A stretch of DNA of 64,000 bases. Source: an uncultured delta proteobacterium (GTDB lineage Bacteria > Desulfobacterota > WTBG01 > CAIYCZ01). The position numbers and the translations under genes were made by a program. The DNA lies in assembly GCA_963803975.1 (NCBI GenBank), contig CAWDOY010000003.1:112446-176445 (forward strand). Reading direction: 5' to 3'. Of this stretch, positions 4,771-49,157 are shown piece after piece. Under the pieces are notes generated by a model, which worked only from the letters and a program-made list of their open reading frames with translations, made no database searches and was not told the origin of the DNA. Position 1 is the first letter of the stretch; the number at the start of each line of letters is the position of its first letter.

Positions 4771-5701
4771 GTGAAAACCGTTATTATCGGCCCGGGAGCC
4801 ATGGGCTGTCTGTATGCATTTCTGCTCACCAGAGCAGGTTATGAAGCGTGGCTGCTGGATAACAGCGAAGACCGCGCTGAACGGATACGGGCTCAGGGGT
4901 TGAAGATTGAGGGGGTGAGCGGAGCGTATCAGCTGCCGTTCCCGAGAATAAGCGCTTCCCCGGACGTAATCGGTAAGGCAGACCTGCTGATTCTTTTTGT
5001 TAAAGCCTATAGCACGGCAACAGCCCTTGAAAGCGCGCGGGAGCTGGTTACTGCCAATACCATGATTCTAACGCTGCAGAACGGTATCGGCAATGTGGAA
5101 TCCATACGGGACGCGTATCCACAGAATCCAATTGTTGCCGGCACTACCGCACAGGGGGCCACGCTGCTTGGCAGCGGGCACATACGGCATGCAGGCATGG
5201 GTGAGACCATCATCGGCGGAATTGATGCGAACAGCACGTTTCACGCAAAGCTGATCAAAGATCTGTTTATGAGTGCGTATATCCCAACTGAAATGACTGA
5301 GGATGTTCACGGGAGTTTTGTGGGGAAAGCTGCTGGTCAACTGCGGCATCAATCCCCTCACGGCAATCATGAGGGTACCTAATGGGCAGCTGCCAAAAAT
5401 TCCCGACCTTTGTGAAGTAATGAGCAGGGTTGTTGAGGAAGGCGCGGCCATTGCACAAAGCGCCGGTATAACGCTGCCCTACAGTGACCCGGTGGCAAAG
5501 GTCATGGAGGTTTGTGCGGCAACAGCCGGTAACCGCTCTTCAATGCTGCAGGACATCGAAGCAGGGAAAAAGACCGAGATTAATTATCTGAATGGTGCGC
5601 TTGTCAGATACGGTACAGAAACGGGAGTTGCAGCGCCGGTTAACAGTTTTCTTACTCACCTGGTACAGGCATTGGAAACGGGCAGCAGTGCGGTGCACTG
5701 A
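4771..5701 (+). CDS. panE: 2-dehydropantoate 2-reductase (ketopantoate reductase), split by one frameshift near 5320
   Basis: N-terminal VIIGPGAMGCLYAFLL and second ORF GKLLVNCGINPLTAI...NYLNGALVRYG; the two ORFs overlap 5303-5382. Confidence 0.7.
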
Positions 5702-29365: not shown

Positions 29366-30829
29366 TTATTCAACCTGATAATTGGGCGCTTCTTTGGTGA
29401 TTATAACGTTGTGAACATGGCTCTCTTTGAGCCCTGAACTGGTAATCTTTATAAACCGGGCTTTCTCACGCAGTTCATGTATGCTGGCGCAGCCAACGTA
29501 CCCCATGCCGGAGCGCAAGCCGCCGACCAACTGATAAATATTAGAGGAAAGGCTGCCGCGATACGGCACCCGGCCCTCTATTCCTTCAGGGACAAGCTTT
29601 GACTGGTTTTCAACATCGCACTGAAAATAACGGTCACTTGAGCCTTCCTTCATGGCTTCAATCGAACCCATGCCGCGGTATACTTTGTAGGTGCGGCCCT
29701 GGTACAGGACCGTTTCCCCCGGGCTTTCATCCGTTCCGGCAAACAGGCTGCCAATCATGACAGAATGCGCTCCAGCCGCAATAGCCTTGGGTACATCACC
29801 GGAATATTTAATGCCGCCATCGGCAATAAGCGGTATGCCATGTTTGTCAGAAATCTTTCTGCACTCCATTATTGCGGTAATCTGCGGCACGCCAACACCT
29901 GCTATTATCCGGGTAGTACAAATGGAGCCGGGTCCCATCCCGACTTTTATAGCGTCACAGCCGGCCTGCATGAGATCCTCTGCAGCCTCTGCGGTGGCGA
30001 TGTTGCCGCCGATAAGCTCACAGTCTTTAAAATTCTTTTTTGTATCACGAATTGCTTCAAGCACTGTTTTGGTGTGCCCATGAGCAGTGTCGATGGCGAG
30101 CACATCAGCGCCGGCTTTTAGAACTGCTTCGGTGCGTGCCTCACGGTCAGGTCCCACGCCGATGGCAGCACCCACGCGCAGCCTGCCGAAGGAGTCCTTG
30201 CATGCCTGCGGATACTGGACAGTTTTTTCAATGTCTTTTACCGTGATGAGACCCTTGAGATTATTATTCTCATCAACTACCAGCAATTTCTCGATGCGGT
30301 TTTTATGTAATAGTTTTTTTGCTTCTTCAAGACTGATACCCGTCGGTGCGGTGACCAGATTTTCTTTGGTCATGACCGAGGAAATCGGCTTTTCAAGTTT
30401 GGTTTCAAAGCGCAGGTCCCGGTTGGTAAGGATACCGACAAGCTTTCCTTTCTTTACGACCGGAAGGCCTGATATCCGGTACTGCTTCATGATCTCCAGT
30501 GCGGTATAAATTTTCTGGTCGGGATCAAGGGTAATAGGATCTACGATCATACCGCTTTCAGATTTTTTTACCTTTTCAACTTCAAGGGCCTGTGTTTCAA
30601 TGGAAAGGTTTTTATGAATAATACCGATCCCGCCTTCCCGTGCCATGGTAATAGCAGTCTGCGCCCTTGTTACGGTATCCATGGCAGCACTGAGCAGGGG
30701 AATATTCAGTTTGATATTTCTGGTCAGCAGTGTTGATACATCTACATCCCGGGGCAGGACCGAGGACTTCGCAGGTACGAGCAGCACATCATCAAATGTC
30801 AGGCTCGTTTGTATATGATCGTTGCTCAT
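29366..30829 (-). CDS. guaB: IMP dehydrogenase
   Basis: [13 protein letters not shown] pair, GSICTT. Confidence 0.95.
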
Positions 30830-30947
30830 TGAAAGTACCTTGTTTAGTAATAAAAAGTCCCCCTTGGGTTGGGGGGAGAAGATGTTAGAAGAGGGAAAAA
30901 GAGTGTTATTTGTGAGTGAGTATAATTATACTAAACCCTGGTTCATG

Positions 30948-31893
30948 TCAAGTATTTACCCCGGCTTTTTCGAGAAGTATTCCCTCCAGAAGCCCGGCAT
31001 CGCTTACCGACAGTTCCTGAACATGCAGCAGCTCCATAATGGTCAATACAATAGCAGTCCCGGCAATAATAACTATTTCCCGACCCGGCTCGAGCCCCGG
31101 CAAATCAACCCTTTCTTTAGAATTAAGGGTAATAATCATATTATAAAGATAATTCAGATAATTATAAGACAAAATATGTTTATTAACCTTATCTATATTG
31201 TACTCAACGAGCTTCAGATCCATTGCTGCAAGGGTGGTAACAGTGCCGGCTGTTCCGATAATGCGGACGTTTTGACTAGTTACTTTTAATTAAATTATTA
31301 ATGATATTACTATTAGTTAAAATTATTGATCTGATGGTATGGTTTAAAATATTGAGGTCATCTTTCAGGGGCGGGTCGTGCTGTAAATACTGTTCAGAAA
31401 GAGTGACAACACCAAGGGGAATACTTTCCACACACTCTATTGACTGGTTGCTGGTAAGAATAAGCTCTGTGCTTCCTCCGCCAATATCGAGGATAAGCGA
31501 CAGATTAGGGTTATCGTTAAAAACAGACTGAACACCTTTCAGGGAAAGGTTCGCTTCTTCCTCTCCGGTTACCAATCTCACCAAAAGATTGGTCTCTGTT
31601 AAAACATTATTTAGAAATGCCCTGCCATTTACAGCTTCCCTGACACATGCAGTTGCAACAGCATAGATATGTTCTGCTCCTTTTTGCCGGGCGCTCATGA
31701 CAAACTTTTTTATGCATGATAACGCCCGGTTCATAGGCTCATTTTGCAGCTGTTTGCTCTCGTTCATCCCCTGACCGAGCCTGACTATCGAGCGATCCCG
31801 GTAGATGGGAACAATCCCGCCATTATTGCTTACATCTGCAACAAGAAGACGAATGGTTTGCGTGCCGATATCAATTGAAGCGTAGCGGGGCAT
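30948..31893 (-). CDS. Ppx/GppA-family phosphatase, frameshifted between the two ORFs
   Basis: IDIGTQTIRLLVA and DIGGGSTE in ORF 31276..31893; C-terminal VIIAGTAIVL...VSDAGLLEGILL in ORF 30948..31223. Confidence 0.6.
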
Positions 31894-31949
31894 AAAAACT
31901 TTGTTCTACTGGTTGATTAGTGTATTAGTTATATTGGTTCCTTAATTGA

Positions 31950-33216
31950 TCAATAGCACCAATCAAAACCAATGAAACCAACATAACCAATACAATTATT
32001 TGATTTTGTTAACAGTTTGTTTAATTCATCCTTTGCCTTAAAGCCAAAATCTTTTATCTTTTCAGGGGTGCTGAGGGCATTGCCTGCAAGTGAGCCGACT
32101 TTCTTTGCAATACTTCCGGCGATCTGCTGAATGATTTTTTCACGTAACTTGAACTTTAATTTATCAAAATTACCCTTCACCTGAAAATCAAAATCTATGC
32201 TGCCGTTAGTTGTTTCCAGTACTTTCATTAGCCCTGCTGCCGGCAGACCCAGGAAGGTTTTGCCCAGAAGGGTTTTATCCCTGCCGGTTAACGTGAGATT
32301 TTTAACCTCAACATGATGGCTGCTGTCCAGATAATCATCTTTAATACTGATCTTTGACGTAACCCAGGCATTGCCATCCTCTATTTTCACGGCAGTGTCA
32401 GGGTAATAATAGTAATAATCAGAGAGGTCTATATTGTCGATTTTGCTTTGCGCCGTAAGGGTAAGCTGTTTTTTAAACAGCAGCCCTTCTCCAGTGCATT
32501 TCAAGGGGGCCTTATGCTGTGAAGAGGTGAGCGAAGCGGTGATGGTAAAAGTAGTTTTAACATCTTTTGTGTTAGGGACTATAACATCTTCTATTTCGAT
32601 ATTCAGTTCAGTTAAAACAATCGTTGGGTCCTGACTGCGGGTTTTGTAATTATAAATCGTAAGGGTACCATCTTTGACAACAAGATTATTGATGTGAAGA
32701 GTAAAGGGTTCGGGAGAATTTTCAGAGGCAACCGGAAAGGAAGATTCTTTTGCCGGCAGAACAGAAGAAGTATTTGTTGCTCTCTCCGCGTTCAAGGCTA
32801 TCAGTCTTTGAAGAAAATATGTAGTCAGTATTAATCTTTTCATCACGGGTCATTATTACCGTAAACTCCGGTTTGATAATGGTGATGTTTTTAAAAGGCA
32901 GGCTATTCCTGAAAAGAGGTAATATTTCAAAATTGCTTTGTAATGATGCTGCCTTTAGCAGGTTCCCCTTTCCAAAGCCCTCCGGCTGCAGCAGCTCAAC
33001 ATCCTTTAATTCAACCATCCAGCGAAAGAGTGAAATATTGACAGAACCGATTTTAAGCCTGTTCTGAAAGATGGGATAAACCCTTTGCTCAACAATTCTC
33101 TGGGCTATGGGATTTATATAAAATGGAACTATCGCAAGAATTACTATTATAATAGCAACAAGTATGAATAGAATTTTTAAGCCCTTATTTTCATAAAACA
33201 TTCCCCTAATCCCCAT
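31950..33216 (-). CDS. membrane-anchored hypothetical protein (AsmA-like/DUF748-like), one frameshift
   Basis: N-terminal TM helix; beta-rich repeats; ORFs overlap 32722-32846. Confidence 0.3.
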
Positions 33217-33579
33217 CTTAATTCAACAATTTTCTATTGCCTTTTGCCTGTTGCCTATTGCCTCACGCTTCTTGCCTTTTACTAATCCCGAACCCCTAAC
33301 TCCCATTCCCTATTTTATAGCAAATTGATAAAATTAAGCAATTATAGTTCATTGACTCTTATCAGGCCATTTGATAAGTTGATACATGTCGTTTGTCGTC
33401 ATTGCTGGCAAAATGTTTTATTATGTGTGACATAAATAGGCTGTAGAGACTATGAAGCACAGTCAAAAGATACCAAGAAGCCATTTGGCCTATTTAAGAA
33501 TCGACGAGCGTAACCCCTTCGATATACTTCTCTCTTTTCCCTGGTTGGCTAACAACCATGCTGGATTGGGAGCGTGTAA

Positions 33580-33876
33580 ATGAATAAAACCCCCCCTGCA
33601 GGACCTGAATCCGCTGAGATCCTCCTCTACCAGACCGAGGACGGACAGACGCGGCTGGAAGTGCGCTTACAAGACGAAACCGTTTGGCTCACACAGAAGC
33701 GAATGGCAGAGCTATTCCAGAAGGATGTCCGAACAATCAACGAACACATTAAGAACATCTTCACGGAGGGCGAGCTCAAGTCGGAATCAGTTATCCGGAA
33801 TTTCCGGATAACTGCGGATCAGAACACAACAGTATCAGAAGGAATTCTCGATGGCAAAAAGAACCGCCTCTCTTGA
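33580..33876 (+). pseudogene. RhuM-family protein, N-terminal fragment
   Basis: ILLYQTEDGQTRLEVRLQDETVWLTQKRMAELFQ matches the RhuM N-terminus; truncated at 98 aa. Confidence 0.6.
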
Positions 33877-33967
33877 TCTGACAGATTGACATCTTTTGGA
33901 CTTATAAAAAAAGAAGGCAGCACTGGCAAAGGCGTCATCTATCGATTGGCCAAAGGGGCATTCGCTA

Positions 33968-34198
33968 ATGGCAGAGAGGCAAACGGTTCATAATTGGCTC
34001 AAATGGCTCATCGGGAACCAGACACCAAAGTGGCCACAAAGGAGCCAAATGCGCCACATCAAGTATCGAAAGGCCGTCGGTGGGATTACCGGGGAAGTTA
34101 CCGGGGAAGTTACCGGGGAAGTACAGAGGCTTCTCAGTGTACTGGCTGGAGAGATGAAACGTACGGTTATCCAGGAGGGCTCTGGCCCTCCGGCATGA
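33968..34198 (+). pseudogene. remnant ORF with three 12-bp tandem repeats ((TGEV)n)
   Basis: ggggaagttacc x3 at 34087-34125; no start context. Confidence 0.25.
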
Positions 34199-34239
34199 AG
34201 ACTACTTCAGGGAGGCTTATCTTCTTCCGGCGCTAACTT

Positions 34240-34560
34240 GTTCGCGGTCAAAGAGTGATTATGGATTGCGATCTTGCAGCGTTAAACGGCATTCCGACCT
34301 TTAGATTTAATGAAGCGGTAAAGCGCAACCAAAAACGGTTCCCTGATGATTTTATGTTTCAATTAACTGCTCCGGAATATGCAGTTTTGACATCGCAATT
34401 TACGATGTCAAAACCTGGCAGGGGTGGACGAAGAACCCTTCCTTATGTCTTTACCGAACACGGTGCCATCATGGCGGCAAACATAAGGCTAAGAGCTGAT
34501 AGCTCTTGCACCGGTGCTGAAGGCTACTAAAAAGAAAAAAGAAGGCAAGATGCCTAGTAA
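34240..34560 (+). pseudogene. ORF6N-domain gene copy A, 5'-truncated and internally deleted
   Basis: IRGQRVIMDCDLAALNGIP...RFPDDFMFQLT...GGRRTLPYVFTEHGAIMAAN, then a remnant of the family's 3' end (gtgaactaaaca). Confidence 0.5.
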
Positions 34561-34611
34561 CAAAAAGAGGGAAATGTGAACTAAACAACAGGCAGATAAC
34601 TATTTAAAAGT

Positions 34612-36190
34612 GGCTGTGGGGGTGTTGAAAAAGTCTCCGTGAGAAATGATTATATGATATGCTGCAGAGCAAAATCAAACATAATCATGGAGACATTATG
34701 ATAGGCAAGCAGGACCGTTGGCAGCGGCACTTATTTATCGCAGGAGACATCGATCAGTTCATTCCTGAAGATCACATACTGCGGCGGGTAGATAGAATCC
34801 TTGATTTGAGCTGGTTGCGAGAAGAAGTGCGGGGGAGTTACTGTGAAGAAAACGGACGGCCAGGGATAGACCCGGAAGCAGCAGTACGGCTGATGCTGGC
34901 CGGGTTTTTTCATGGGGTAGTGCATGATCGGAAGTTAATGAGAGAGGCACAGGTAAATCTGGCGCTCCGATGGTTTGCGGGATACAGTCTGGAAGATAAA
35001 TTGCCGGATCATTCGAGCCTGAGCCGGATACGGCAGCGCTGGGGGGAAGAGCGGTTTAAGAAGATATTTCAGAGGACGGTACAGAGCTGTATAGCAAAGG
35101 GGTTGGTGAGCGGAGAAACAGTGCATATCGATGCGACCTTGATACGAGCGGACGTGTCGTGGGAGAGCATAACCGAGAGACACGCAGAGCAGGTGGTGGC
35201 AGAGAACAATACCGAGGAGGACAACCGGGCGGAAGATCCATTGCCACGGGGGCCGGGACGACCGCGGACAAAGAAGGAGCATCCGAAGAAGGTAAGCAGT
35301 ACCGACCCGGAGGCAACGCTGGTGACCTCACGGAGGGATTTTCACCTTGAGCCGTCATACAAACAGCACACGGCAGTCGATGACAAGGAAGGGGTAATCG
35401 TAGATATTGAGATAACGACTGGAGAAGCGAATGAGGGCCAACGGTTACTTGAGACGGTAGAACGAATTGAGCAGACAACCGGGAAGAAGCTGGGCCGGGT
35501 AACGGCAGACAAGAGCTACGCACATGCACGGAATTATGAGGGGTTAGAGAAACGAGGGATAGATGGCATCATACCGCCGGAGCGGGAGCGGGTGAAGGAG
35601 AAGCGGATACCGATCAGGCGGTTCAAATATGACGGCAAGCATCAACGGGTACGGTGTCCTGGAGGTAAAAGTCTGGAGCGGGCAAACCGTACGAAGAATG
35701 GGTGGTTCTACCGCGCACGGAAGAGTGATTGTAGCGCTTGTCCACTACAGAAACGCTGTATCCCTGAGACAGCGAAGGCACGGGTGATACTCATTGTAGA
35801 CGGCTATGAGGCACTGTTGCGAGCGCGCAGGAGAAAGAACCGTGGCTGGGATACAGATACGCAACGGGTCTATAACCGGCATCGGGTTTATGTTGAAGGA
35901 GTGCATGGTGAGGGTAAAACGCAGCATGGCTTGCGGCGGGCAGTACGTCGCGGATTAGCAAATGTGGCGATTCAAGTGTATTTGATAGCGGCAGTAATCA
36001 ATCTGAAGCGGCTGGCCAAGGCCTTAAGCCCCCGACCAGATGATGGAGACTGGTATTTAATTATTCGTAACAGGTTAGGAGCTGTTATTAAACAGTTTTT
36101 TGGTGATTGGGTAGAAAAACTGTATAGCGCTTTGTTTTGTGCTGCATGACAATACTTATAGAGGGGGTTTTTCAACACCCCCGCTGTCCC
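34612..36190 (+). mobile_element. IS5/IS1182-family insertion sequence
   Basis: Terminal inverted repeats GGGGGTGTTGAAAAA (34618-34632) and TTTTTCAACACCCCC (36168-36182) flank a 496-aa DDE transposase. Confidence 0.8.
34659..36149 (+). CDS. IS5/IS1182-family DDE transposase
   Basis: N-terminal InsH-like domain (IPEDHILRRVDRILDLSWL...PDHSSLSRIRQRW); 496 aa. Confidence 0.85.
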   Translation: MLQSKIKHNHGDIMIGKQDRWQRHLFIAGDIDQFIPEDHILRRVDRILDLSWLREEVRGSYCEENGRPGIDPEAAVRLMLAGFFHGVVHDRKLMREAQVNLALRWFAGYSLEDKLPDHSSLSRIRQRWGEERFKKIFQRTVQSCIAKGLVSGETVHIDATLIRADVSWESITERHAEQVVAENNTEEDNRAEDPLPRGPGRPRTKKEHPKKVSSTDPEATLVTSRRDFHLEPSYKQHTAVDDKEGVIVDIEITTGEANEGQRLLETVERIEQTTGKKLGRVTADKSYAHARNYEGLEKRGIDGIIPPERERVKEKRIPIRRFKYDGKHQRVRCPGGKSLERANRTKNGWFYRARKSDCSACPLQKRCIPETAKARVILIVDGYEALLRARRRKNRGWDTDTQRVYNRHRVYVEGVHGEGKTQHGLRRAVRRGLANVAIQVYLIAAVINLKRLAKALSPRPDDGDWYLIIRNRLGAVIKQFFGDWVEKLYSALFCAA

Positions 36191-36194
36191 CACA

Positions 36195-36614
36195 TAAGGC
36201 GGATTTCCTGAAGATTTCATGTTTGTGCTATCCAGCGAAGAAGCTAAAAACTTGAGGTCACAAATTGTGACCTCAAGTTTACCCCATTGGGGTGGTTCCC
36301 GCTATCTGCCTATGGCCTTTACTGAACAGAGCGTTGCAATGTTGTCCAGTGTACTTAAAAGTGATCGAGCTATAGAGGTTAACATCCAGATTATGAGGGT
36401 GTTCACCAGGCTTAGACAAATACTCTTGGGCAATAAAGATCTAAGGCGGGAACTTGAAGAATTAAAGCGGGTTACTGATGATAGGTTTCGTGTCGTTTTC
36501 GAGACACTGGACCAGTTGTTAAGTAATGATGAAAGGCCCAAACGAAAAATCGGGTTCGAGGTGAAGGAAAGGGCGGCAAGATACCGGGTAAACAGAAAGA
36601 AAACTGTGAACTAA
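36195..36614 (+). pseudogene. ORF6N-domain gene copy B, N-truncated at the IS right end
   Basis: Resumes at RFPEDFMF right after the IS right IR; C-terminus KERAARYRVNRKKTVN. Confidence 0.55.
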
Positions 36615-36649
36615 ACATAAAGTTAAGATAACGGGCGCTGTTCCCATTA

Positions 36650-36760
36650 CCCATTGGTCACGAGACCCGAGTCACGAGCCACGATTCAGCTGACTGCTGT
36701 AGTCTATTTTGCACGATTCACAGGTCACGGGTCACTTGCTTGCGAGCCCCGTCCCTAACC
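36650..36760. repeat. cluster of GTCACG(A/G)G direct repeats
   Basis: ggtcacgag, agtcacgag, ggtcacggg and ggtcactt occur within ~100 bp upstream of 36780. Confidence 0.4.
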
Positions 36761-36779
36761 CCTAGTTAGAGAGAGCATT

Positions 36780-37340
36780 ATGATGAAAAAGACACTACGC
36801 ATACTGTTTTTCATCCTTATCGTGCTGGGTGGTGTTGGATTTTATTTCACGCCATATATATCCTTTCACAACATGAGACTAACGGCTGAGAATCGCGATG
36901 CAGTGACATTGACAGATTATATTGACTATCCGTCGCTCAAGGAAAGCTTGAAAGTAAATTTACATGCCCGGATGTCAGGTGAGGCTCAGGGCAAACAGGA
37001 TAAAGACCCGTTTGAGAAAGTGGGTGAAGCTATTGTTTCAGCTTTTATCAATCCGGTGGTTGATGCATTTGTCACGCCTGAAAGCCTGAGTATGATGATG
37101 CGGGGCTATATACCGCCAGTCAATAAATCAGATCGCACGTCAGAAAAGAAATCAGAAAATGCTTCAAAAAAGAAAACCTCACATGATGATTCGGATATCG
37201 AAACCACAATGTATTATGAGAGCTTTAATCGCTTTGTGGTGAAGGTGAAGAATAAAGATTCTGCTGAAGATCCGGTCGAACTTATATTCAGGCGGGATGG
37301 GGTTATTTACTGGAAACTATCTGCCATAAAGCTGCCTTAG
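36780..37340 (+). CDS. membrane-anchored DUF2939-like protein
   Basis: N-terminal TM segment (ILFFILIVLGGVGFYF); 186 aa. Confidence 0.35.
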   Translation: MMKKTLRILFFILIVLGGVGFYFTPYISFHNMRLTAENRDAVTLTDYIDYPSLKESLKVNLHARMSGEAQGKQDKDPFEKVGEAIVSAFINPVVDAFVTPESLSMMMRGYIPPVNKSDRTSEKKSENASKKKTSHDDSDIETTMYYESFNRFVVKVKNKDSAEDPVELIFRRDGVIYWKLSAIKLP

Positions 37341-37440
37341 TAAAAGAAGCAGCCATGAGGGTGCGGCAATACTTTTAAGAGAAGAGGATTAAAATAACGT
37401 GCTCTATTATTGGCTTCTTCAAGGTAAAAAAGGGGAATGA

Positions 37441-38039
37441 TTGATGAAAGATAAACTATCCAGATATGAGCCAGAAGATATTGAAAGAAGAATTTATACT
37501 ATTCGCGGTCAAAGAGTGATTATGGATTGCGATCTTGCAACATTATACGTCATTCCGACCTTTAGATTTATGAAGCGGTAAAGCGCAACCAAAAACGTTT
37601 CCCTGATGATTTTATGTTTCAATTAACTGCTCCGGAATATGCAGTTTTGACATCGCAAATTGCGATGTCAAAACCTGGCAGGGGAGGACGAAGAACCCTT
37701 CCGTATGTCTTTACCGAACATGGTGCCATCATGGCGGCGAATGTGCTCAATAGCCCGAAAGCAATAGAGATGAGTGTTTTTGTCGTCCGTGCATTCATTA
37801 AGATGCGTGAAACTCTTGCTAATAATAAAGCACCGGCGTTAGAATTGTCAGAGCTTGAAAAGAAACTTACCGGGCGGCTTAATGTCCATGAAAGAGCCAT
37901 TGTGCATGTTTTGGCCGAGATAAGAAAGTTAATGGCTTCAGCAGAGCCGTCACCTGAACCGACAAAACAAAAAATAGGATTTACGGTAAAGGAGAAGGCG
38001 GCAAGATACCAGATAACAAGAAAGAAAACTGTAAACTAA
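37441..38039 (+). pseudogene. ORF6N-domain gene copy C with a 1-nt frameshift near 37570
   Basis: MKDKLSRYEPEDIERRIYTIRGQRVIMDCDLA then a stop; resumes in FPDDFMFQLTAPEYAVL...AARYQITRKKTVN. Confidence 0.55.
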
Positions 38040-38064
38040 ACATAAAGATAATAAACAGGATTCT

Positions 38065-39525
38065 ATGTTTGAACAAGCCTTCAAAAACATCGACGACGTC
38101 CTCTGGAAAGAGGCCGGCTGCACCACCGAGCTGGACTACACCGAGCAGACCTCCTGGCTGCTGTTCCTGAAATACCTCGACGGGCTGGAGCAGGACAAGG
38201 CCGATGGAGGCCGCGCTGGAGGGGAAGAAGTACACCTACATCCTCGACAAGCCCTACCGCTGGGAAAGCTGGGCCGCGCCCAAGGGCAAGGACGGCAAGC
38301 TCGACCACAACAAGGCCCTGACCGGCGACGACCTGCGCGACTTCGTCAATCAGAAGCTCTTTCCCTACCTGCACGGCTTCAAGCAGAAGGCCAGCGGGCC
38401 GAACACCATCGAATACAAGATCGGGGAGATCTTCGGCGAGATCAAAAACAAGATCCACAGCGGCTACAACCTGCGCGAGATCATCGACCACATCGACGAA
38501 CTGCGCTTCCGCTCGCAGACCGAGAAGCACGAGCTCTCGCACCTCTACGAAGCCAAGATCAAGAACATGGGCAACGCCGGGCGCAACGGCGGCGAGTATT
38601 ACACCCCGCGCCCGCTCATCCGCGCCATCGTGCAGGTGGTCAAGCCCAAGATCGGCGAGCGCATCTACGACGGCGCGGTCGGCTCGGCGGGCTTCTTGTG
38701 CGAAGCGTTCGACTACCTGAAGAGCCAAGCCCAAGCTGCACCACCGCCAGGACCTGAAGACGCTGCAGGAGCGCACCTTCTACGGCAAGGAAAAGAAGTC
38801 GCTCGCCTACGTCATCGCGATCATGAACATGATCCTGCACGGCATCGAGGCGCCGAACATCATCCACACCAACACGCTCACCGAGAACCTCGCCGACATT
38901 CAGGAGAAGGACCGCTATCGACGTGGTGCTGGCCAATCCGCCCTTCGGCGGCAAGGAGCGCAAGGAGGTCCAGCAGAACTTCCCCATCCGCACCGGCGAG
39001 ACCGCCTTCCTGTTCCTCCAGCACTTCATCAAGATGCTCAAGGCCGGCGGGCGCGGCGGCGTGGTCATCAAGAACACCTTCCTCTCCAACACCGACAACG
39101 CCTCGGTGAGCCTGCGCAAGCTGCTGCTGGAAAGCTGCAACCTGCACACCGTGCTCGACTGCCCCGGCGGCACGTTCCAGGGCGCGGGCGTGAAGACCGT
39201 GGTGCTGTTCTTCGAGAAGGGCGCGCCGACCCGCAAGGTCTGGTACTACCAGCTCGACCCCGGCCGCAACCTGGGCAAGACCAACCCGCTCAACGATGAC
39301 GACCTCGCCGAGTTCGTCGAACTGCAAAAGACCTTCGCCGACTCGCCCAAGAGCTGGAGCGTGGACGCCAAGAGCATCGACCAGACGACCTTCGATCTCT
39401 CCGTGAAGAACCCCAACGGCGGCGAGGAAGTCACCCACCGCAGCCCGCAGGAGATCATGGACGAGATCGCCGCGCTGGATGCCGAGAGTGCGGAGGTGCT
39501 GGCGAACATCAGGGCGCTGCTATGA
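38065..39525 (+). pseudogene. hsdM: type I R-M methyltransferase subunit, at least 3 frameshifts, ~65% GC
   Basis: HsdM_N start MFEQAFKNIDDVLWKEAGCTTELDYTEQTSWLLFLKYLD; NPPFGG motif in ORF 38923..39525; read through 4 overlapping ORFs. Confidence 0.75.
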
Positions 39526-40770
39526 AGAACGGGTGGCAAACGAAGAACGCTTGGGCGACGTCTGCGAGTCATCGACTACGGGCAAGCACGCCAGCAAAGA
39601 CAATCGACCGTTCTGACGGCAATCACTGACGAATGTGATATCTGCGGTCATTACAGACTGTAACCGATGAAAGTTCGTTGACAGACCGAGACATGTCGAT
39701 ATGGTCAGCGATGCTCGAGCAATTCCAGAAGGGTGACGTTCTGTTTGCGACATCACTGAGTCACGTCGGGCAAGGTCGCGCATTGCATACTGACGAGCGA
39801 GTTGCTATCGGCACGACGATGCGCATTGTCTGCATCCGACCAATGACGCAAGCTATTGACTCGAGATTCTTGCTTTACTATCTGCTTCTATCGACTAGTT
39901 CAAGAGCATGTTCGAGCAGCAGATGGAGTCAGGCGCGACCGTCAAGCGTAATCAAAGTCGAGCTTCAAGAGCATTCAGATTCCCATTCCCCCGCTCCCCG
40001 AACAGCAGCGGATCGTCGGCATCCTCGACGAAGCGTTTGACGGCATCGCCACCGCCAAAGCCAACGCCGAAAAGAACCTCCAAAACGCCCGCGCCCTCTT
40101 CGAAAGCCACCTCCAATCCGTCTTCACCCAGCGCGGCGAGGGGTGGGTGGAGAAGACGCTTGGAGAATCTGTCGAATGATCAACGGCGACAGCGGAAGCA
40201 CTATCCGACCGAGAGAATACGTCGAGACGGCATTCCTGTTGTGAACACCGGACAAACGTTCGATGCACGATGGTACTTGTCGCAGACGATATATGAGTTA
40301 CATTCGACCAAGGATGCTACGAATCCACGAAGACGTGCAAATTCAGCAGGCGGCGACGTCTGATTGTTGCATCGACGGCGCAACCGCTGGAAGAGCGGCA
40401 TTGCGATTGTCCGACACCGCAGCGAGCTTACGACATCTGCTTGATCAGCGTCGATCTCAGTTACAGCAAGCAGTCGCGACATAGTCGCTTCGCTTTATCT
40501 GCTATGCTTCAAGTCCGAGGATCTTTCAGGCAGACATCACGTTGATGACAGTTCTGGCAGCTGCACAACAGCTCAACTTGAGACTAAAGCTGTTGAGACT
40601 CTTCGATGCCATCTCCTGAATCGACCGAACAAGCAAGTCAGTATCTCGAAAGCTCGATGACCTCGTCAGACCGAAACCCAACGCCTCGAATCCATCTACC
40701 AGCAGAAGCTCGCCGCACTGGAGGAGTTGAAAAAATCGCTGCTGCACCAAGCCTTCAGCGGCCAACTTTA
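39522..40770 (+). pseudogene. hsdS: type I R-M specificity subunit, heavily frameshifted
   Basis: LGDVCE..., DSRFLLYYLL..., IPIPPLPEQQRIVGILDEAF... and ...YQQKLAALEELKKSLLHQAFSGQL lie in different frames. Confidence 0.55.
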
Positions 40771-40780
40771 GGAATACGCC

Positions 40781-43196
40781 ATGAACGAAGCCGAAACCCG
40801 AGCCGAACATATCGACCCTGCGCTGAAAGCGGCGGGCTGGGGCGTGGTTGAAGGCAGCCGCATCCGGCGCGAGTATCCGATCACGCTGGGCCGCATCGAA
40901 GGCCACGGCAAGCGCGGCAAGGCGCTGACCGCCGATTATGTGCTGGAGTACCGCAACACCAAGCTGGCGGTGGTCGAGGCCAAGGCGTGGGACAAACCGC
41001 TGACCGAAGGCGTGGGGCAGGCCAAGGACTACGCCGGCAAGCTGGCCATCCGCTTCACCTATGCCACCAACGGCCAGGGCATCTACGGCATCGACATGGA
41101 GACCGGCGCCGAGGGCGAACTGGCGCAGTATCCGACGCCGGATGAACTGTGGAACCGGACCTTTGCCACGCAGAACGCCTGGCGCGACCGCTTCGCCGCC
41201 GTGCCGTTCGAGGACAAGGGCGGCTACTTCCAGGGCCGCTACTATCAGGACATCGCCATCGAGCGGGTGCTGGAGGCCATCGCCGACGGACAAGCAGCGC
41301 ATCCTGCTGACGCTGGCCACCGGCACGGGCAAGACCTTCATCGCCTTCCAGATCGCCTGGAAGCTGTTCCACAGCCGCTGGAACCTGACCGACTGGAAGA
41401 CGGAGGGCGAACCAACGCGCCGGCCGCGCATCCTGTTCCTGGCCGACCGCAACATTCTGGCCGACCAGGCATACAACGCCTTTTCCGCCTTTCCCGAAGA
41501 CGCCCTGGTGCGCATCGCCCCGGACGACATCACGCAAGAAGGGCAAGGTGCCGAAGAACGGCAGCATCTTCTTCACCATCTTCCAGACCTTCATGAGCGG
41601 GCCGCCCAAGGATGGCCAGCCATCGCCCTATTTCGGCGAGTATCCGCCGGACTTCTTCGACTTCATCGTCATCGACGAGTGCCACCGCGGCGGCGCCAAC
41701 GACGAGAGCAACTGGCGCGGCATCCTGGACTACTTCGCCCCTGCCGTGCAGCTCGGCCTGACCGCCACGCCCAAGCGCAAGGACAACGTGGACACCTACG
41801 CCTATTTCGGCGAGCCGGTCTACATCTACTCGCTGAAGGACGGCATCAACGACGGCTTTCTCACGCCGTTCCGGGTGAAGCAGATTTCCACGACGCTGGA
41901 CGAGTACGTCTATACGCCCGACGACACGGTGGTCGAGGGCGAGATCGAGGCGGGCAAGCGGTACGAGGAACCCGACTTCAACAAGATCATCGAGATCAAG
42001 GAGCGGGAGAAGAAGCGGGTCGAAATCTTCATGTCGCAGATCGACCAGCGGGAGAAGACGCTGGTCTTCTGCGCCACCCAGGACCATGCGCTGGCGGTGC
42101 GCGACCTCATCAACCAGATGAAGACCAGCACCGACCCGAACTACTGCCAGCGGGTGACGGCCAACGACGGCGCGCTGGGCGAACAGCACCTGCGGGACTT
42201 CCAGGACAACGAGAAGACCATCCCGACCATCCTGACCACCTCGCAGAAGCTCTCGACCGGCGTGGATGCCCGCAATATCCGCAACATCGTGCTGATGCGC
42301 CCGATCAACTCGATGATCGAGTTCAAGCAGATCATCGGGCGCGGCACACGGCTCTACGACGGCAAGGACTACTTCACGATCTACGATTTCGTGAAGGCGC
42401 ACCATCATTTCAGCGATCCGGAGTGGGATGGCGAGCCGCTTGAGCCGGAAACTGTCCAAAATGCGGCTGCTATCCCTGCCAATGCGAAAAGCCACCGCCG
42501 AAACCTTGTCCGGTCTGCGGCAAGCAGCCTTGCGAATGCGTCGAAAGAACCGTGCCCGAACTGCGGCAAGCGTCCGTGCGTGTGCAAGAAGAAAGCGAAG
42601 GTGAAGCTCGCCGACGGCAAGGAACGCACCATCCAGCACATGATGGTGACGAGCTTCTGGCACCCCGACGGCACGCCGATGTCGGCGCAGCAGTTCATGG
42701 AAGTGCTCTTCGGCAAGCTGCCGGAGTTCTTCAAGGACGAAGAGGAACTGCGCGCCCTCTGGAGCGCGCCGGATACGCGCAAGAAGCTGCTGGAGGGACT
42801 GGCCGAAAAGGGCTTCGGCAAAGATCAACTGGCCGAGATGCAGAAGATCATCGACGCCGAGAAGAGCGACCTGTTCGACGTGCTGGCCCATGTGGCCTAT
42901 GCCCTGCCGCCGCTCACCCGTGAGGAACGGGCCGCAAAGGCCAAGGTCATCATCAGCACAGCATTTCAACAGCAAGCAGCAGGTCTTCCTCGACTTCGTG
43001 CTGTCGCATTACGTGAGCGTCGGCGTGGAGGAACTCGACCAGGACAAAGCTGACACCGCTGCTGCGGCTCAAGTATCACGACTCCATTGCCGATGCCGTG
43101 GCCGACCTGGGCAAGCCGGAGGAGATTGGCAAGGTGTTCGCCGGCTTCCAGAAGTACCTCTATCAGCAGCAAGCGGCAGTAACGCAAGAAAAATAA
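40781..43196 (+). pseudogene. hsdR: type I restriction enzyme R subunit, at least 4 frameshifts
   Basis: N-terminus ETRAEHIDPALKAAGW; helicase motifs [24 protein letters not shown]; read across ORFs 40781/41061/41548/42890. Confidence 0.75.
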
Positions 43197-43259
43197 GTTA
43201 AATACGGGCTAACAAGGCACCGTACACACAGGGCAACAGATACTATTCGTGGAGTATAC

Positions 43260-44327
43260 ATGGTGAGTGATAAACTGCTGAAAAAAACAATTTCGGCACA
43301 GGGCGAAGTTTTACTCTATCAGACCGAAGACGGCGCAACTCGAATTGAAGTACGAATGGAGGGTGAAACCGTCTGGATGACGCAGGGAACCATGGCGGAA
43401 CTGTATCAGAACCACGCCGCAAAATATCACGCTTCATTTAAAAGCCATTTATGAGGAGGGCGAACTGGAGGAAGGAGCAACTTGTAAGGAATTCTTACAA
43501 GTTCAAAATGAAGGGGCGCGGAAGGTGACCCGGTCACGAAAATTCTACAGTCTGCCTGCTATTCTTGCAGTCGGCTATCGTGTGCGCTCACACCGGGGAA
43601 CACAGTTCCGGCAATGGGCAACTGAACGGCTTACTGAATATCTCGTCAAGGGCTTTAACCTTGATGACGAGCGATTTAAAAGAGCTGGCGGCGGCGGATA
43701 TTTCGATGAGCTGCTCGCCCGCATCCGCGACATACGCTCATCAGAGAAGGTTTTCTGGCGCAAGGTGCTTGATATTTACGCCACGAGCATTGACTATGAC
43801 TCTCCACGGAAATGTCACAGAAATTCTTTGCCACAGTGCAGAACAAAATGCACTGGGCTGCCCACGGCCACACCGCAGCGGAGGTAATCGCCGCGCGTGT
43901 CGATTCTGAAAAACCCAGCATGGGACTCACCAGCTGGACTGGCGCTCATCCCAACAAAGATGATGTGAGCATTGCGAAGAACTATCTCGACGAAAAGGAA
44001 CTCGATGCGCTCAATCGCATTGTGACACTGTATTTGGAATTTGCAGAACTTCAGGCATTGAACCGTAAACCCATGTATATGGGCGAATGGATCGCCAAGC
44101 TCGACGAATTTCTACGAATAAGTGAGCGCGATATTCTTACTCATGCAGGCAAGGTGAGCCATGAGAACGCTCTACTGAAAGCTGAAACTGAATATCAGAA
44201 GTTCGAGCAGAAGCGTCTGGCTGAACCGACACAGGCGGAGAAGGATTTTGAGGAAGCCGTGAAGAAACTGAGGAAGCTGAAAGCACCCAGCAGGGGAGCA
44301 AAAAAGCCAAAAGGAAAGATGTCATGA
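43260..44327 (+). pseudogene. RhuM-family protein, full length but in three frames
   Basis: VLLYQTEDGATRIEVRMEGETVWMTQ; VGYRVRSHRGTQFRQWATERLTEYLVKGF; FATVQNKMHWAAHGHTAAEVI. Confidence 0.65.
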
Positions 44328-44449
44328 ACCGTTATGTAAATGCAATCGCCGGGCGATTAAGTCTGCGGCAGCCACAGCGTCGCTTCTTGAGAATTAAAGG
44401 GGCAGAGCCCAAAAGACTGCTTCGGTGAAGAATAATATGGAGATAGAAA

Positions 44450-45692
44450 ATGCCTTTAAAATCCTACGAGCACTGCTGTTCTTCCTGTATTGCTCTTGCT
44501 AATCTCGGAAAGATTGAGGGAGTGATACCCATCCTCCATGGACCGCAGGCCTGCGCCTTCGGCAATCAGATCGGCTCCATGTTCTGCCGGCCATCCCGGT
44601 TGCTGACCATTGGCACCACACTTAAAAAGAGTGAAGTTATTTTTGGCGGTGAAGATAAGCTCAAAGAACAGATTGTTAATGTCTATAAACAATACAAGCC
44701 CAAAATTATCGTGATTATTAACACCTGTGTTCCGCAGCTCATAGGCGAAGATTTAAAGGGAGTAATCATCGAGCTGAAGGAAGAACTGCCGGAGCTGAAG
44801 GTGACCTATTGTGAGACCGGATTCAATCAGCCAAAATCTACCCCACTGGGCAATGACGTATCATGGCGGGCGATTATTGACGTGCTGGAGCCCAGGGATA
44901 TGATCAAGGGCTCAGTGGGAATACTGGGGAGGGCAGGGCAGGATGCGGACAGCATGGGCTGTCTTGACGTCTCTGTTGCGGGAAGCGGGTATTACCACGT
45001 TTGCTTTTCCTGCCGGGCACCTTGAAGAAATGGAGAAGATTGTCCAGGCTGAGTATCTGTTCCCCATTCATTTAGTCCCCTATCTGACCAGCAAACGGAT
45101 TAATGAACGGTTTGGCTCAAAGACTGTTTATATTGAACTGCCGGTGGGGATTGCCGGGACTACCAATTTTCTACGCGGAGTTGCCGACCTGACAGGCAGC
45201 ATTAAACTTAAAGAAATTGCAGACCGTGAAGAAAAAAGATCATTGCCGCGATTAGAGAAAATAAGGGAGCAATTCAGACAGAAGCCAACAAAGGTTCTGT
45301 TAGTATCCGGGCCTGCCAATGAAACATCAATTGGGAAAATACTGGCTGAATTCGGAGCAGAAGTGATTATTGTGCCATCCATGCGCAATGCCTTTGCCCG
45401 CCAGGAGCAGGACATTTTGCAAAAGCGCTATGGCTCCCGCATTATCTTCCATGAAAATGACTTTAACAAAGTTTCAGACCTTGTAGGTTTATATAAGCCG
45501 GATGTTGTGTTTGGTGATTTCCAGGCACGCGTTGAGGTTATACGAAACCTTATCCCCTGTCTCATCAACGAGAACTATTTGAATGAATACGGCTATGATT
45601 ATGCCCTGGACTTTGGTGAAAACTTTTTTGAGAACTTGAAGCAGCCATTTTTTACCGAGTGGAAGGATATTATGCGTCAATACGCAGGATAG
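44450..45692 (+). CDS. nitrogenase component 1-type oxidoreductase, NifD/NifE/BchN-like (copy 1), one frameshift near 44960
   Basis: ALANLGKIEGVIPILHGPQACAFG; the second ORF 44943..45692 continues the fold. Confidence 0.7.
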
Positions 45693-45696
45693 AATC

Positions 45697-45775
45697 TGGA
45701 ACTCAGGAACTCATAAATTACAGCCTAATCAAATTAATCTGGAACTCAGGAACTGCATAAATATGATTTTTAAAC
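45697..45775. repeat. two ~26-bp direct repeats in the D-like/B-like intergenic region
   Basis: aatctggaactcaggaactcataaat ... aatctggaactcaggaactgcataaat. Confidence 0.6.
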
Positions 45776-45810
45776 CCTGTGCACGATCGTAGTTTTGTAT
45801 TGGAGATAGC

Positions 45811-47542
45811 ATGTCTGCAACTGACAGAAGAGATTTTATTGCTCCAGAAATAAAGATGAAGGAGATTCATAAGCCATCTTCTTTTGAAGGCGCTTTATGG
45901 GCCGCGCAGGGGATAACAGATGCCCGGGTGATTTATCATGCACCTCCCGGCTGCTATCTTATGCAGCACATGAACTCCATCTGCAATGAATGGCATCCTG
46001 AGATGTACAGCACGCTCATATCATACGCTGAAGTTATGCAGGGCACCGGGAAAAAGCTGGAGGAGGTGCTGGAAAAGGTTGTCGCTGAAAAGCCGCAGGC
46101 AATTATTATAATAACCTCACCGGTGATTGAGATTACCGGCGATGACGTTCAGGGTGCAGTCGCGGCTGCAGGATTCGAGAAGACGGTAATAATAAGACCA
46201 ACCCTGGGCGGCACACTCGCTGATGGAAAGGAAAAGGCATTTATCGCTCTGACCGGACTGATGAAGACAGACGAAGAGAAGCGGAAAAAGTCCGTCAATT
46301 TAATAGGGCCGACCTATAATACGTTCAACTGGCGGGCGGATGTATTTGAACTTAAAAGAATGCTCTCTGCCATCGGTATCTGCGTCAACGCTGTTTTAAC
46401 AGCTGACTGCACGGTTGATGAAATTATACATGCACCCCGGGCTGAACTAAATATATGCATGTATCCCTATGATTGCGGGATAGAATTTGCCAAGAAAATG
46501 CAGGAGCAGTTCAGCATACCGTATATTGCAAGCCATATTCCCCTTGGCTTCCGAGAATCAGCTGCATGGCTTGATGAAATTGCCCGGTTCTTTCTGATTG
46601 ATGCAAAGCAGTATATTGCACAGGAAATAAAAAGTGCCCGGGACTTTGTCACAACGCTTTTGGTAACCAACACCTTCTTTGAAGCAACGGCTGCCCTCTC
46701 AACTGACAACTGTGATACCTACAGCGTCGGGATAAGCAGTTTTCTGAAAAGAGAACTCGGCATGGATGTTTGCATGGCGTCGGTAGCAACTGATGAGGCA
46801 TTGGAAAAAGTGTCCCAGGTTTGCTCTACGGTACTATTAAATCCAAGCATTGATGAGAAAAAGTCGGTAATGCTGGAGAAATCCCCGACCATTATTCTCG
46901 GGAATTACTATGACCTCAAGCTTGCAACTGACCTGGGATTCAAGAACTTCCTGTTTGCGGATATCCCGCTTATCGGATACATCTTTTCAGAAACTACTCC
47001 ATTCATGGGCTTCATGGGTGCTAAGCATCTGGTGCAGGCCATGGGCAATGAGATTTATACCAAGATATTTATTGAGACCAAGGGGGAAATGGAAGGCGCC
47101 ATATCAGCAGGGGAGGTGCCGTGGGAACTCGATGCGGAGCGGGCGCTGGGAAGGATTGCTGAGATGCTCCCTCATTTTATACGTTCAATCGCGCTGAAGA
47201 AAATTCATCAAGTGGCAGATGAGACAGCCGTGCAAAAAAAATCTTCGGTCACGCTGGGGATCCTGCAGGAGGTCGCCACAAAATATACCCCGACGAGGTT
47301 TAAGTCAAAATATGCCACCATCTTTACGGATATAAAAGATACCCCGCTTGTTCCAGATGGCGCTGAGCAGACCGTGTTTCAGATGGAGTGGGATCAGGGC
47401 TGCTAAAGAGATGCTTGAGATGGTGCCCGATGAGTTCGTGGCAAAGGCGGTGAGGGAAACAGAAGGCTATGCCCGCGAGAACAATTATGGTCAAATAACT
47501 ACAGCGGTTGTCGAGGAATACCGGAAGAAGCTCGGCTTTTGA
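45811..47542 (+). CDS. nitrogenase component 1-type oxidoreductase, NifK/NifN/BchB-like (copy 1) with two C-terminal PCP_red-like domains; frameshift near 47395
   Basis: VIYHAPPGCY; PWELDAERALGRIAEMLPHFIRSIALKK; the last domain WSGIRAAKEMLEMVPDEFVAKAVRETEGYARENNYGQITTAVV is out of frame (ORF 47348..47542). Confidence 0.7.
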
Positions 47543-48656: not shown

Positions 48657-49157
48657 ATGAAGACAGGAAAGAAAATAATGAAAAATAAAAATGAAAACAT
48701 TAATTTAAAGGAAATTGAGGAGTTCGGAGATCATCTGCGCAATTGGAGAAATTTTTTCACTGAGTTTTTTAATAACGTAATAAAAGACAGCGGCAAAATA
48801 TCAGGCTTTGATTTCAGTATGTCACAGTTTAAGACCATGGGGGCCTTTCGGGAAGATACGGTCTATACCATGGGCGAGTTAAGTAAAAATGCTTCTGTTA
48901 CCATGCCGACCATGACTGAAATGATTGATAATCTGGAGCGGGAAGGAATTGCCGAGCGGATAAGGGATTCTCAGGATCGGAGGGTAGTAAAGGTACGTTT
49001 AACTGCAAAAGGAAAAAAGCTGCGCAAGAAATTCATGGATAAACGAAGGAATGAACTTAAAAACATACTCAGCAATCTGAGTAAAGAAGACCGGGGTGAG
49101 CTTATGAATGCGCTTGCCAAAGCGTACAGCGTACTGAAGAAAAACAGCACGGTATAA
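48657..49157 (+). CDS. MarR-family transcriptional regulator
   Basis: Winged HTH TMGELSKNASVTMPTMTEMIDNLEREGIAERIRDSQDRRVVKVRLTAKG. Confidence 0.7.
   Translation: MKTGKKIMKNKNENINLKEIEEFGDHLRNWRNFFTEFFNNVIKDSGKISGFDFSMSQFKTMGAFREDTVYTMGELSKNASVTMPTMTEMIDNLEREGIAERIRDSQDRRVVKVRLTAKGKKLRKKFMDKRRNELKNILSNLSKEDRGELMNALAKAYSVLKKNSTV

Follow-up and report, generated by a model that had tools for sequence, protein, structure and literature searches.

A variable defence locus between conserved core genes of an uncultured bacterium, with probable cargo turnover by recombination and frameshifts that are mostly probable consensus errors

Does a block of broken defence genes record decay, or does it mark a slot in which cargo is exchanged, and which of its breaks are real? 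The question was raised by a stretch of DNA of 64,000 nucleotides (the window) from an uncultured delta proteobacterium (contig CAWDOY010000003.1 of GCA_963803975.1). The original prediction had listed two RhuM genes, three ORF6N genes, an insertion sequence (IS), a DUF2939 gene, and a type I restriction-modification (R-M) operon in one part of it, and all of these elements were found at or close to where they had been placed (Table 1). Our reading, which we consider probable, is that this is an approximately 11-kb variable defence locus in a fixed slot, that its cargo is turned over by homologous recombination, and that its single-base frameshifts are mostly consensus errors. The host of the locus would be an uncultured Thermodesulfobacteriota lineage.

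Table 1. Features of the island and its overall extent, in coordinates of the window.
Feature	Coordinates	Strand	Evidence
Whole variable island	33377..44426	.	Synteny with L024/L027, L001
RhuM1, RhuM N-terminal fragment	33580..33876	+	Similarity to L023 fragment and RhuM2 N-terminus
Fic-like_C remnant (HATPase_c_4/Fic-like_C gene), truncated, frame-broken	about 33880..34240	+	PF21247
ORF6N copy A, 5′-truncated, internally deleted	34241..34590	+	PF10543
IS1182-family insertion sequence, 1565 bp	34618..36182	+	Transposase profile, inverted repeats, target duplication
ORF6N copy B, 5′-truncated	36204..36614	+	PF10543
DUF2939 gene, intact, 186 aa	36780..37340	+	PF11159
ORF6N copy C, full length but for one −1 frameshift near 37570	37444..38039	+	PF10543 on downstream part
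hsdM (type IB)	38065..39525	+	tblastn with L019 HsdM; net +1 shifts ~38202, 38723-38749, 38918
hsdS	39522..40771	+	tblastn with L019 HsdS; at least 5 frame changes
hsdR (EcoAI/FtnUII family)	40781..43196	+	NF046051; six indels
RhuM2, full length, two frameshifts (+1 near 43410, −1 near 43803)	43260..44327	+	PF13310

The island borders were set by synteny. Homology to L024/L027 (relatives at about 84% identity) ended at 33376 and resumed from 44427, and homology to L001 began at 44416. Synteny confirmed that the block lies between core genes, with an asmA/DUF748 gene as its left neighbour and the first nitrogenase-like gene (nif1) as its right one. The genes asmA-ppx-guaB-guaA were common to the window, L023, L024–L027, and L028, and nif1 was also common to the window and L024. 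The GC content was 0.59–0.64 across the hsdMSR operon and about 0.45 elsewhere, and the operon had rightly been called foreign (about 60% GC in a 45%-GC genome). An Rfam scan of positions 30000–46000 gave no match, and none of the NCBIfam models matched RhuM2, ORF6N, DUF2939, or the accessory proteins of L023 and L028. The right half of the island is probably the current payload, comprising a complete type IB hsdM-hsdS-hsdR operon whose composition is foreign and proteobacterial or plasmid-like, a full-length ORF6N gene before it, and a full-length RhuM gene after it. The left half would be a scrapyard from earlier occupants, with a RhuM N-terminal stump, a Fic-like_C remnant, and two damaged ORF6N copies. 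The intact DUF2939 gene and the single IS1182-family insertion, with its target duplication, also lie in this half.

RhuM1 keeps only the part upstream of the RhuM Pfam domain and had no Pfam match of its own; its assignment therefore comes from its similarity to RhuM2 and to L023. It was 96% identical at the amino acid level, over 85 residues, to the same truncated gene in L023, and DNA homology with L023 stopped at 33829, within the gene. The truncation is real. The adjacent Fic-like_C remnant, which was missing from the original list of elements, matched PF21247 with 32.4 bits (profile positions 2–41 of 64, frame-merged translation), and longer versions of 154 and 326 aa were present in L023 and L028, respectively. 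All three ORF6N copies exceeded the PF10543 gathering cutoff of 27.8 bits: copy A (34255–34530) with 80.9 bits, copy B (36219–36614) with 39.2 bits over profile positions 44–86 only, and copy C (37614–38039) with 34.4 bits. Positions 34241–34481 of copy A were 94–95% identical to positions 37502–37741 of copy C, and in the 3′ part of copy A the match to ORF6N 3′ ends was limited to the last ~16 nt. At its frameshift, copy C reads TTTATG where copy A has TTTAATG. Copy B, with 85% nucleotide and 67% amino acid identity to the intact ORF6N gene in the same slot of L024, is judged to be its vertical ortholog. The DUF2939 gene scored 77.5 bits against PF11159 and was 97.8% identical to its L023 counterpart.

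The IS, predicted to have clear inverted repeats, carries perfect ones (15/15 bp, 34618–34632 and 36168–36182) and was assigned to the IS1182 family. Its transposase (34659–36149, 496 aa) is intact and scored 374.8 bits against the NCBIfam IS1182 model NF033551 (cutoff 270), and the 5-bp direct repeat GCTGT lies on both sides of the element (34613–34617 and 36183–36187). The element has everything by which the family is recognized, namely a single DDE transposase above the NCBIfam cutoff, terminal inverted repeats, and a short target duplication; it differs in that only one copy is visible in the window and that there is no sign of cargo moved by it. The IS was also considered as the cause of the truncation of ORF6N copy B and was ruled out, as the intact target duplication on both sides argues against an adjacent IS-mediated deletion.

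The operon resembles type IB (EcoAI/FtnUII) systems in its hsdM-hsdS-hsdR order, its NF046051 score, its EcoEI_R_C domain, and its conserved central and C-terminal HsdS regions. The genes follow each other with an ATGA overlap and a 9-nt gap. In contrast to type IB systems generally, the operon has 60% GC inside a 45%-GC host, its HsdS target-recognition domains are dissimilar to those of the systems compared, and all three genes are frame-broken as deposited. At least 15 frame-breaking indels were counted in the operon as assembled (three net shifts in hsdM, at least five in hsdS, and six in hsdR), and the deposited operon does not have uninterrupted reading frames. These indels had gone unmentioned in the original prediction.

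The intact HsdM of L019 aligned to hsdM in four tblastn pieces (frames 1, 2, 3, and 1; 88–91% amino acid identity), and HsdM_N and N6_Mtase Pfam matches were found. The indel-corrected HsdM has 484 aa, no internal stop, and 90% amino acid identity to that of L019. For hsdS, the L019 protein matched in different frames at the conserved central region (39952–40167) and the C-terminus (40673–40768), two more frame shifts lie inside the first ~30 codons, and the target-recognition domains are variable. No Methylase_S Pfam match was obtained on any single hsdS ORF because of the frame changes. The hsdR indels lie at about 41291–41296, 41532, 42452, 42542, 42960, and 43044. The hsdR fragments matched HSDR_N (sub-threshold), ResIII, SWI2_SNF2, Helicase_C, and EcoEI_R_C; the insertion at 41532 was placed by alignment with L028, and its removal restored the family motif IRKKGKVP. 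The corrected HsdR (799 aa) is free of stops and scored 843.8 bits against NF046051 (cutoff 550). The operon was 82–92% identical in amino acids to many intact homologs, and its family occurs on proteobacterial plasmids. Homology to other operons started at the hsdM ATG or 16 nt before it and ended about 15 nt past the hsdR stop (16 nt by coordinates), and these limits coincide with the GC step. Next to the operon, RhuM2 matched PF13310 above the gathering score in two frames (156.6 and 193.6 bits, profile positions 18–113 and 115–249), and the corrected protein (355 aa) and intact RhuM proteins of 353 aa could be aligned over their full lengths, with up to 92% identity.

Among four related contigs that share the asmA flank, four different contents were found. 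In L024–L027, an ORF6N gene, an HsdR-like gene, an IVP gene, and an M/S fusion, all intact, lie between asmA and nif1. The L023 slot holds a RhuM stump, a Fic-like_C gene, KilA-N, DUF2939, and IS3, followed by purA. In L028, a Fic-like gene is present together with hsdM/S of the same type IB family, GmrSD fragments (between hsdS and hsdR), and hsdR. The locus thus has what defines a defence hotspot, i.e., conserved flanking core genes and defence cargo that differs between related genomes. Relatives with an identical gene order and intact genes would have pointed to an assembly artefact; for the structure of the island this was not observed, as the content of the relatives differs. No empty slot was found among the relatives compared. 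The relatives found by a scan with the nitrogenase-like protein had no conserved left-hand synteny, and the closest of them, L001, ends 243 bp upstream of nif1.

Between the window and L028, identity was 95% in hsdR, 86% in hsdM, and about 84% in the core genes, which indicates that parts of the operon differ in history. The 5′ part of nif1 was 94–99% identical to L024 and about 80% identical beyond, which points to a recombination tract crossing the right island border. Cargo turnover by homologous recombination is supported by these mosaic identity patterns, and together with the four contents behind one asmA flank they bear out the predicted recombination hotspot with insertion, deletion, and replacement of defence cargo. 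The exchange would take place in the conserved flanks and in those cassette genes that are conserved (ORF6N and, to a very high degree, hsd), and site-specific integration would play no part in it.

Consensus errors in a long-read metagenome assembly most likely account for the single-base frameshifts of the operon, of RhuM2, and of ORF6N copy C, the label "long-read" being taken only from Flye-style contig names in related ENA samples. In a comparison with 102 homologs, the corrected HsdR had no deviations at 282 invariant columns or at 476 columns with at least 95% conservation; the homologs had been picked for their similarity to the window, a choice that favours a consensus-like appearance. 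Since the corrected genes lack substitution-level decay, the frameshifts are poor evidence of decay. The indels were mostly +1 and had no link to long homopolymers. One of them, a +1 at HsdR residue 171, was present in the window, L028, L030, and L031 (three different ERZ2503xxxx samples, different hosts), and one ENA project appears to be the source of all four contigs. The inserted base was A, G, and A in the three placeable contigs (window, L028, and L031, respectively). In the other metagenome contigs (short-read-style) that share a downstream 29-mer, a short and degenerate one, the site was in frame in 80 of 80; when an exact 36-mer of the hsdR sublineage was used instead, no metagenome contig matched. 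Downstream of the site, dN/dS was 0.08–0.10 at dS up to 0.5. Inheritance of this frameshift from a dead ancestor was considered and rejected, the downstream dN/dS being about 0.1. If the frameshifts are errors, the R-M system would probably be intact and active in the cell. Damaged copies had been taken as a signature of turnover; this holds for the truncations, the internal deletion, and the IS insertion, to which the solid scars are limited, and not for the frameshifts.

It is nevertheless conceivable, though we consider it unlikely, that the whole island, with the operon, RhuM2, and ORF6N copy C among its parts, is a genuine graveyard of true pseudogenes to which frameshift mutations were added under relaxed selection. 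At least 18 frame-breaking indels lie inside 7 kb, and core genes nearby are broken too (ppx, asmA, and two nitrogenase-like genes). The 8-nt deletion in asmA, seen relative to two relatives, looks like a real mutation, and some pseudogenes may be genuine. The indel density was about 1 per 350 bp in the operon, and the long core ORFs (about 14 kb) had no indels. Errors at a simple uniform rate would not predict such unevenness, and the purging of real indels by selection would, leaving them dense in dispensable DNA. What weighs against true decay is the state of the corrected genes, which are free of nonsense mutations and have all 476 conserved HsdR columns unsubstituted: neutral divergence is bounded at roughly below 0.3%, as opposed to six indels in the same gene. 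The usual bias in bacterial pseudogenes is deletion, opposite to the +1 bias seen here. Recurrence of the residue-171 shift in four contigs, with strong purifying selection downstream and its absence from all 80 others, also argues against decay. The same recurrence could be explained by a real +1 and a recoded or split HsdR (a nuclease part and a motor part) of a mobile type IB sublineage; the site lies where the N-terminal nuclease domain borders on helicase motif I, and purifying selection acts on both halves. This we regard as highly improbable, given the apparent single ENA project, the differing inserted bases, the in-frame site in the contigs of other sources, the absence of a slippery sequence at the site, and the several further, non-shared frameshifts in each contig. 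If true, the shift would be the mark of a widely mobile type IB sublineage in which HsdR is recoded or made in two pieces.

Two further readings concern the structure of the island. The 60%-GC operon might belong to another, proteobacterial organism in the sample and have been joined in by the assembler, as the sharp GC step exactly at the operon ends, the high error density within the segment, and the occurrence of the same operon family in high-GC contigs of related ENA samples (e.g., L030) would allow. Such a chimera is very unlikely, however: it requires two precise joins at gene boundaries, both junctions lead to low-GC island genes and then to core flanks syntenic with L024, and the independent contig L028 has the same family beside the same asmA gene. 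The foreign composition, the IS, and the variable presence in relatives would also suit a single 11-kb genomic island inserted by site-specific recombination, but the relatives differ piecewise rather than by the presence or absence of one unit. The original prediction had suggested a search for att sites, tRNA genes, or an integrase outside the window. No tRNA was found anywhere in the window, no integrase or recombinase domain in the island ORFs, no integrase in the annotated syntenic flanks of L024, where the neighbour genes are metabolic, and no direct repeats at the island borders. With none of the marks of an integrase-mobilised island in place, an integrative element is extremely improbable.

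As a variable locus with exchanged cargo, the island is an ordinary but real defence hotspot, and the principle is not new. In Escherichia coli, the immigration control region (defence hotspot #37; the hsd-mcrBC-mrr locus, flanked by yjiS and yjiA) is a fixed slot with alternative segments carrying type I R-M systems of different families (PMC3874165), and very diverse defence cargo fills it in nearly every genome (PMC10121019). The island studied here likewise occupies a fixed slot between conserved core genes and holds alternative R-M cargo, and EcoAI, the prototype of its operon family, belongs to the tradition of the immigration control region. It differs from that region in phylum and flanks (asmA/DUF748 and a nitrogenase-like gene), in the four or five states sampled, and in its cargo, which includes ORF6N, RhuM, and Fic-like passengers and an IS1182 element. 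The locus adds one slot with R-M systems swapped by recombination, in an uncultured sulfate-reducer-related lineage. In practical terms, a cluster that appears heavily pseudogenised after metagenome assembly can be an intact operon with many sequence errors, and setting the indel load against substitution-level conservation and recurrence in other assemblies separates error from decay without raw reads.

RhuM and ORF6N genes had been predicted to be typical passengers of type I R-M loci. For RhuM, enrichment beside type I R-M and hsdS inversion loci is documented, with examples between core hsd genes (PMC9881135). The passenger types of the island are those of known R-M accessory genes (RhuM, ORF6N/KilA-N, Fic/DOC, and GmrSD); unlike embedded accessory genes, the passengers here flank the operon instead of lying inside it, several are only stumps, and their roles are putative. 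One RhuM2 homolog sits between a methylase gene and a ResIII gene.

To find syntenic loci, the AsmA-like fragment was used as a protein query, and the contigs of its matches were then looked up. In relatives L024-L027 (JGI and Logan), the order guaA-guaB-ppx-asmA is kept (AsmA 84% aa identity to the window). There, asmA is followed by an intact 184-aa ORF6N gene and by genes for an HsdR-like protein (846 aa), a 23S_rRNA_IVP protein, and a methylase/specificity fusion (844 aa), and then by the same two nitrogenase-like genes as in the window. DNA homology to these contigs ends at 33376 and restarts at 44427, and the island was bounded accordingly. In L023 (ENA; AsmA 97%), collinearity with the window takes in the RhuM stump and reaches 33829; beyond that point come genes for Fic-like_C and KilA-N proteins, the DUF2939 gene that the window also has (97.8%), an IS3, and purA. 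In L028 (ENA; asmA ~84% nt), remnants of ORF6N and a HATPase_c_4/Fic-like_C gene precede an operon of the window's type IB family, in which GmrSD fragments separate hsdS from hsdR. In L001 (nif2 97%), the gene upstream of nif1 is a different one. The contents of these loci and of the window differ, and therefore at least four different contents occupy one slot among the relatives.

Synteny thus supported the recombination hotspot proposed in the original prediction. In its behaviour the locus resembles the immigration control region of E. coli, a highly divergent slot amid conserved genes in which type I R-M systems are carried on alternative segments (PMC3874165), and also core-gene-flanked defence hotspots in general (PMC10121019). 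That RhuM genes lie next to type I R-M loci is documented (PMC9881135), and one RhuM2 homolog lies within another R-M operon. The locus is a new instance of an already known kind of defence hotspot. Near the island, an aldehyde dehydrogenase gene (25870-27408), found in the window and L024 and missing from the 97% relative L023, makes a second presence/absence difference.

All elements named from the sequence were recovered by the ORF listing and Pfam/NCBIfam scans, together with a Fic-like_C remnant that had not been listed. The IS has perfect 15-bp inverted repeats and a GCTGT repeat at both sides. GC content is 0.59-0.64 across the hsdM-hsdS-hsdR operon vs ~0.45 elsewhere. No tRNA was found in the whole 64-kb window, and no Rfam family matched in 30000-46000.

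Island features and split core genes (window positions)
Feature	Positions	State or evidence
panE/ApbA	4771-5701	core gene outside island; split in assembly
ppx	30948-31893	split in assembly; +1 at 31276
asmA/DUF748	31950-33216	split in assembly; -8 at 32781, possible -1 at 32010
RhuM1	33580-33876	N-terminal stump; ORF listing, Pfam/NCBIfam scans
Fic-like_C remnant	~33880-34240	PF21247, 32.4 bits, frame-merged translation
ORF6N copy A	34241-34590	5'-truncated, internal deletion; 94-95% identity to copy C over 241 nt
IS (1565 bp)	34618-36182	intact 496-aa IS1182-family transposase, 374.8 bits (cutoff 270)
ORF6N copy B	36204-36614	5'-truncated
DUF2939 gene	36780-37340	intact
ORF6N copy C	37444-38039	single -1 shift
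hsdM	38065-39525	
hsdS	39522-40771	
hsdR	40781-43196	
RhuM2	43260-44327	two shifts
Nitrogenase-like Oxidored_nitro gene	44450-45692	split in assembly; +1 at 44966
Nitrogenase-like Oxidored_nitro gene	49193-50438	split in assembly; +1 at 49964

In the deposited sequence, HsdM lies in four frame pieces, HsdR in five, and HsdS has at least five frame changes. HsdR of the type IB family has three tandem CPxCGxxPCxC motifs (42448-42585) between the helicase and the EcoEI_R_C tail; a compensating -1/+1 pair disrupts two of them. With the indels removed, HsdR (799 aa) and HsdM (484 aa) have no internal stops. Corrected HsdR was compared with 102 homologs selected by similarity to the window, which biases it towards a consensus look but leaves lineage-specific random changes visible as singletons: it deviates at 0 of 282 invariant columns and 0 of 476 columns conserved at ≥95%, and has three singleton residues only, all of which we attribute to misplacement of one indel. 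Long-term decay should add substitutions; none had accumulated, and the indels are therefore a poor sign of decay. Most indels in the window add one base (+1) and lie outside long homopolymers, whereas bacterial pseudogenes usually show a bias towards deletions. Corrected RhuM2 and intact 353-aa Desulfobacterota RhuM proteins align over their full lengths (identity up to 92%). In L031, another operon-bearing contig, frameshifts cluster in the high-GC operon and the adjoining lower-GC Gabija-like genes are intact; in L030, a contig of high GC throughout, many genes appear split. The probable source of most frameshifts is consensus error in a presumed long-read metagenome assembly; if so, the genes of the operon as well as RhuM2 and ORF6N copy C are probably intact in vivo. 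The frameshifts in the copies named in the original prediction are thus likely an artefact. The RhuM truncation is certainly real, since L023 carries the same stump.

Error alone does not account for the uneven indel density, which is ~1 per 350 bp in the operon and zero across long core ORFs totalling ~14 kb. An error rate that depends on GC, or low depth of a strain-variable cassette, could explain it. Intact versions of the split core genes occur in L023, L024, and L001. Some lesions look real, e.g. the asmA 8-nt deletion, which is seen relative to both L023 and L028. The nitrogenase-like genes form two paralogous Oxidored_nitro pairs (44450-47406 and 49193-52194), with a MarR-family regulator gene (48657-49157) and, on the minus strand, an unannotated gene for a 255-aa protein between them. 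The contigs L001 and L015 have the same duplication.

One shift argues especially for consensus error: an extra base at HsdR residue 171 common to the window, L028, L030, and L031. Three different ERZ2503xxxx samples are represented among the carriers, as are different genomic contexts, and the inserted base is not constant (A, G, A for the window, L028, and L031, in which it is placeable). All 80 retrieved metagenome contigs with the same downstream 29-mer (80/80) are in frame at this site. Downstream of it, the carriers show dN/dS of 0.08-0.10 with dS reaching 0.5, so this part was translated throughout their divergence. The sole unusual reading left, a genuine recoding or split of HsdR at this residue, is considered very improbable.

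Domain scans of island ORFs, a repeat search, and the window tRNA scan associated no integrase, att repeat, or tRNA with the block; the neighbouring syntenic genes annotated in L024 have metabolic functions. We infer that cargo is exchanged by homologous recombination, which would act through the flanks and the conserved coding sequence of resident cassettes and would account for the ORF6N and RhuM stumps accumulating at the left. ORF6N copy B has 85% nt identity to the L024 ORF6N, the same level as core genes, so this copy is the resident passed down vertically. Identity patterns around the block are mosaic. The first 600 bp of nif1 are 94-99% identical to L024, and the remainder is ~80% to L024 and ≥95% to L001. 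This 5' part (44527-45127), 77-88% identical to the close relative L001 and 94-99% to the otherwise ~84% relative L024, is a putative recombination tract across the right island border. The ppx product is 55-58% identical (aa) to that of L024, with neighbours at ~84%, which suggests allelic replacement of a core gene beside the hotspot.

Between the window and L028, hsdR is 94.9% and hsdM 86% identical, core genes are at ~84%, and the hsdS recognition domains are unrelated. Operon homology starts at the hsdM ATG (L019, a contig with an intact HsdM) or 16 nt upstream (L028) and ends ~15 nt past the hsdR stop (16 nt by coordinates); these limits fall at the GC step. The family is unusually conserved: of 8000 members found, 102 full-length homologs were compared, and these share 82-92% aa identity. 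It also occurs on proteobacterial plasmids.

The IS was rejected as the cause of the adjacent truncation: its 5-bp duplication is intact, so the junction had been rearranged before the IS entered it. L023 has an additional, isolated copy of the final 50 nt of the DUF2939 gene (37296-37345), and L028 retains them as a remnant although it lacks the gene, which suggests that this gene has repeatedly been a site of breakage or rejoining. Upstream of asmA, a 65-nt non-coding stretch (33312-33376) is 97% identical to L028, with adjacent coding DNA at ~84%, and island variation begins immediately past it. It had no Rfam match and may be a promoter/regulatory element or a recombination anchor. In L031 (5307-8641), from another sample, the same type IB operon family lies beside two Gabija-like genes, one for an AAA_15/TOPRIM protein and one for a UvrD helicase, so the mobile operon has another defence-island setting there.
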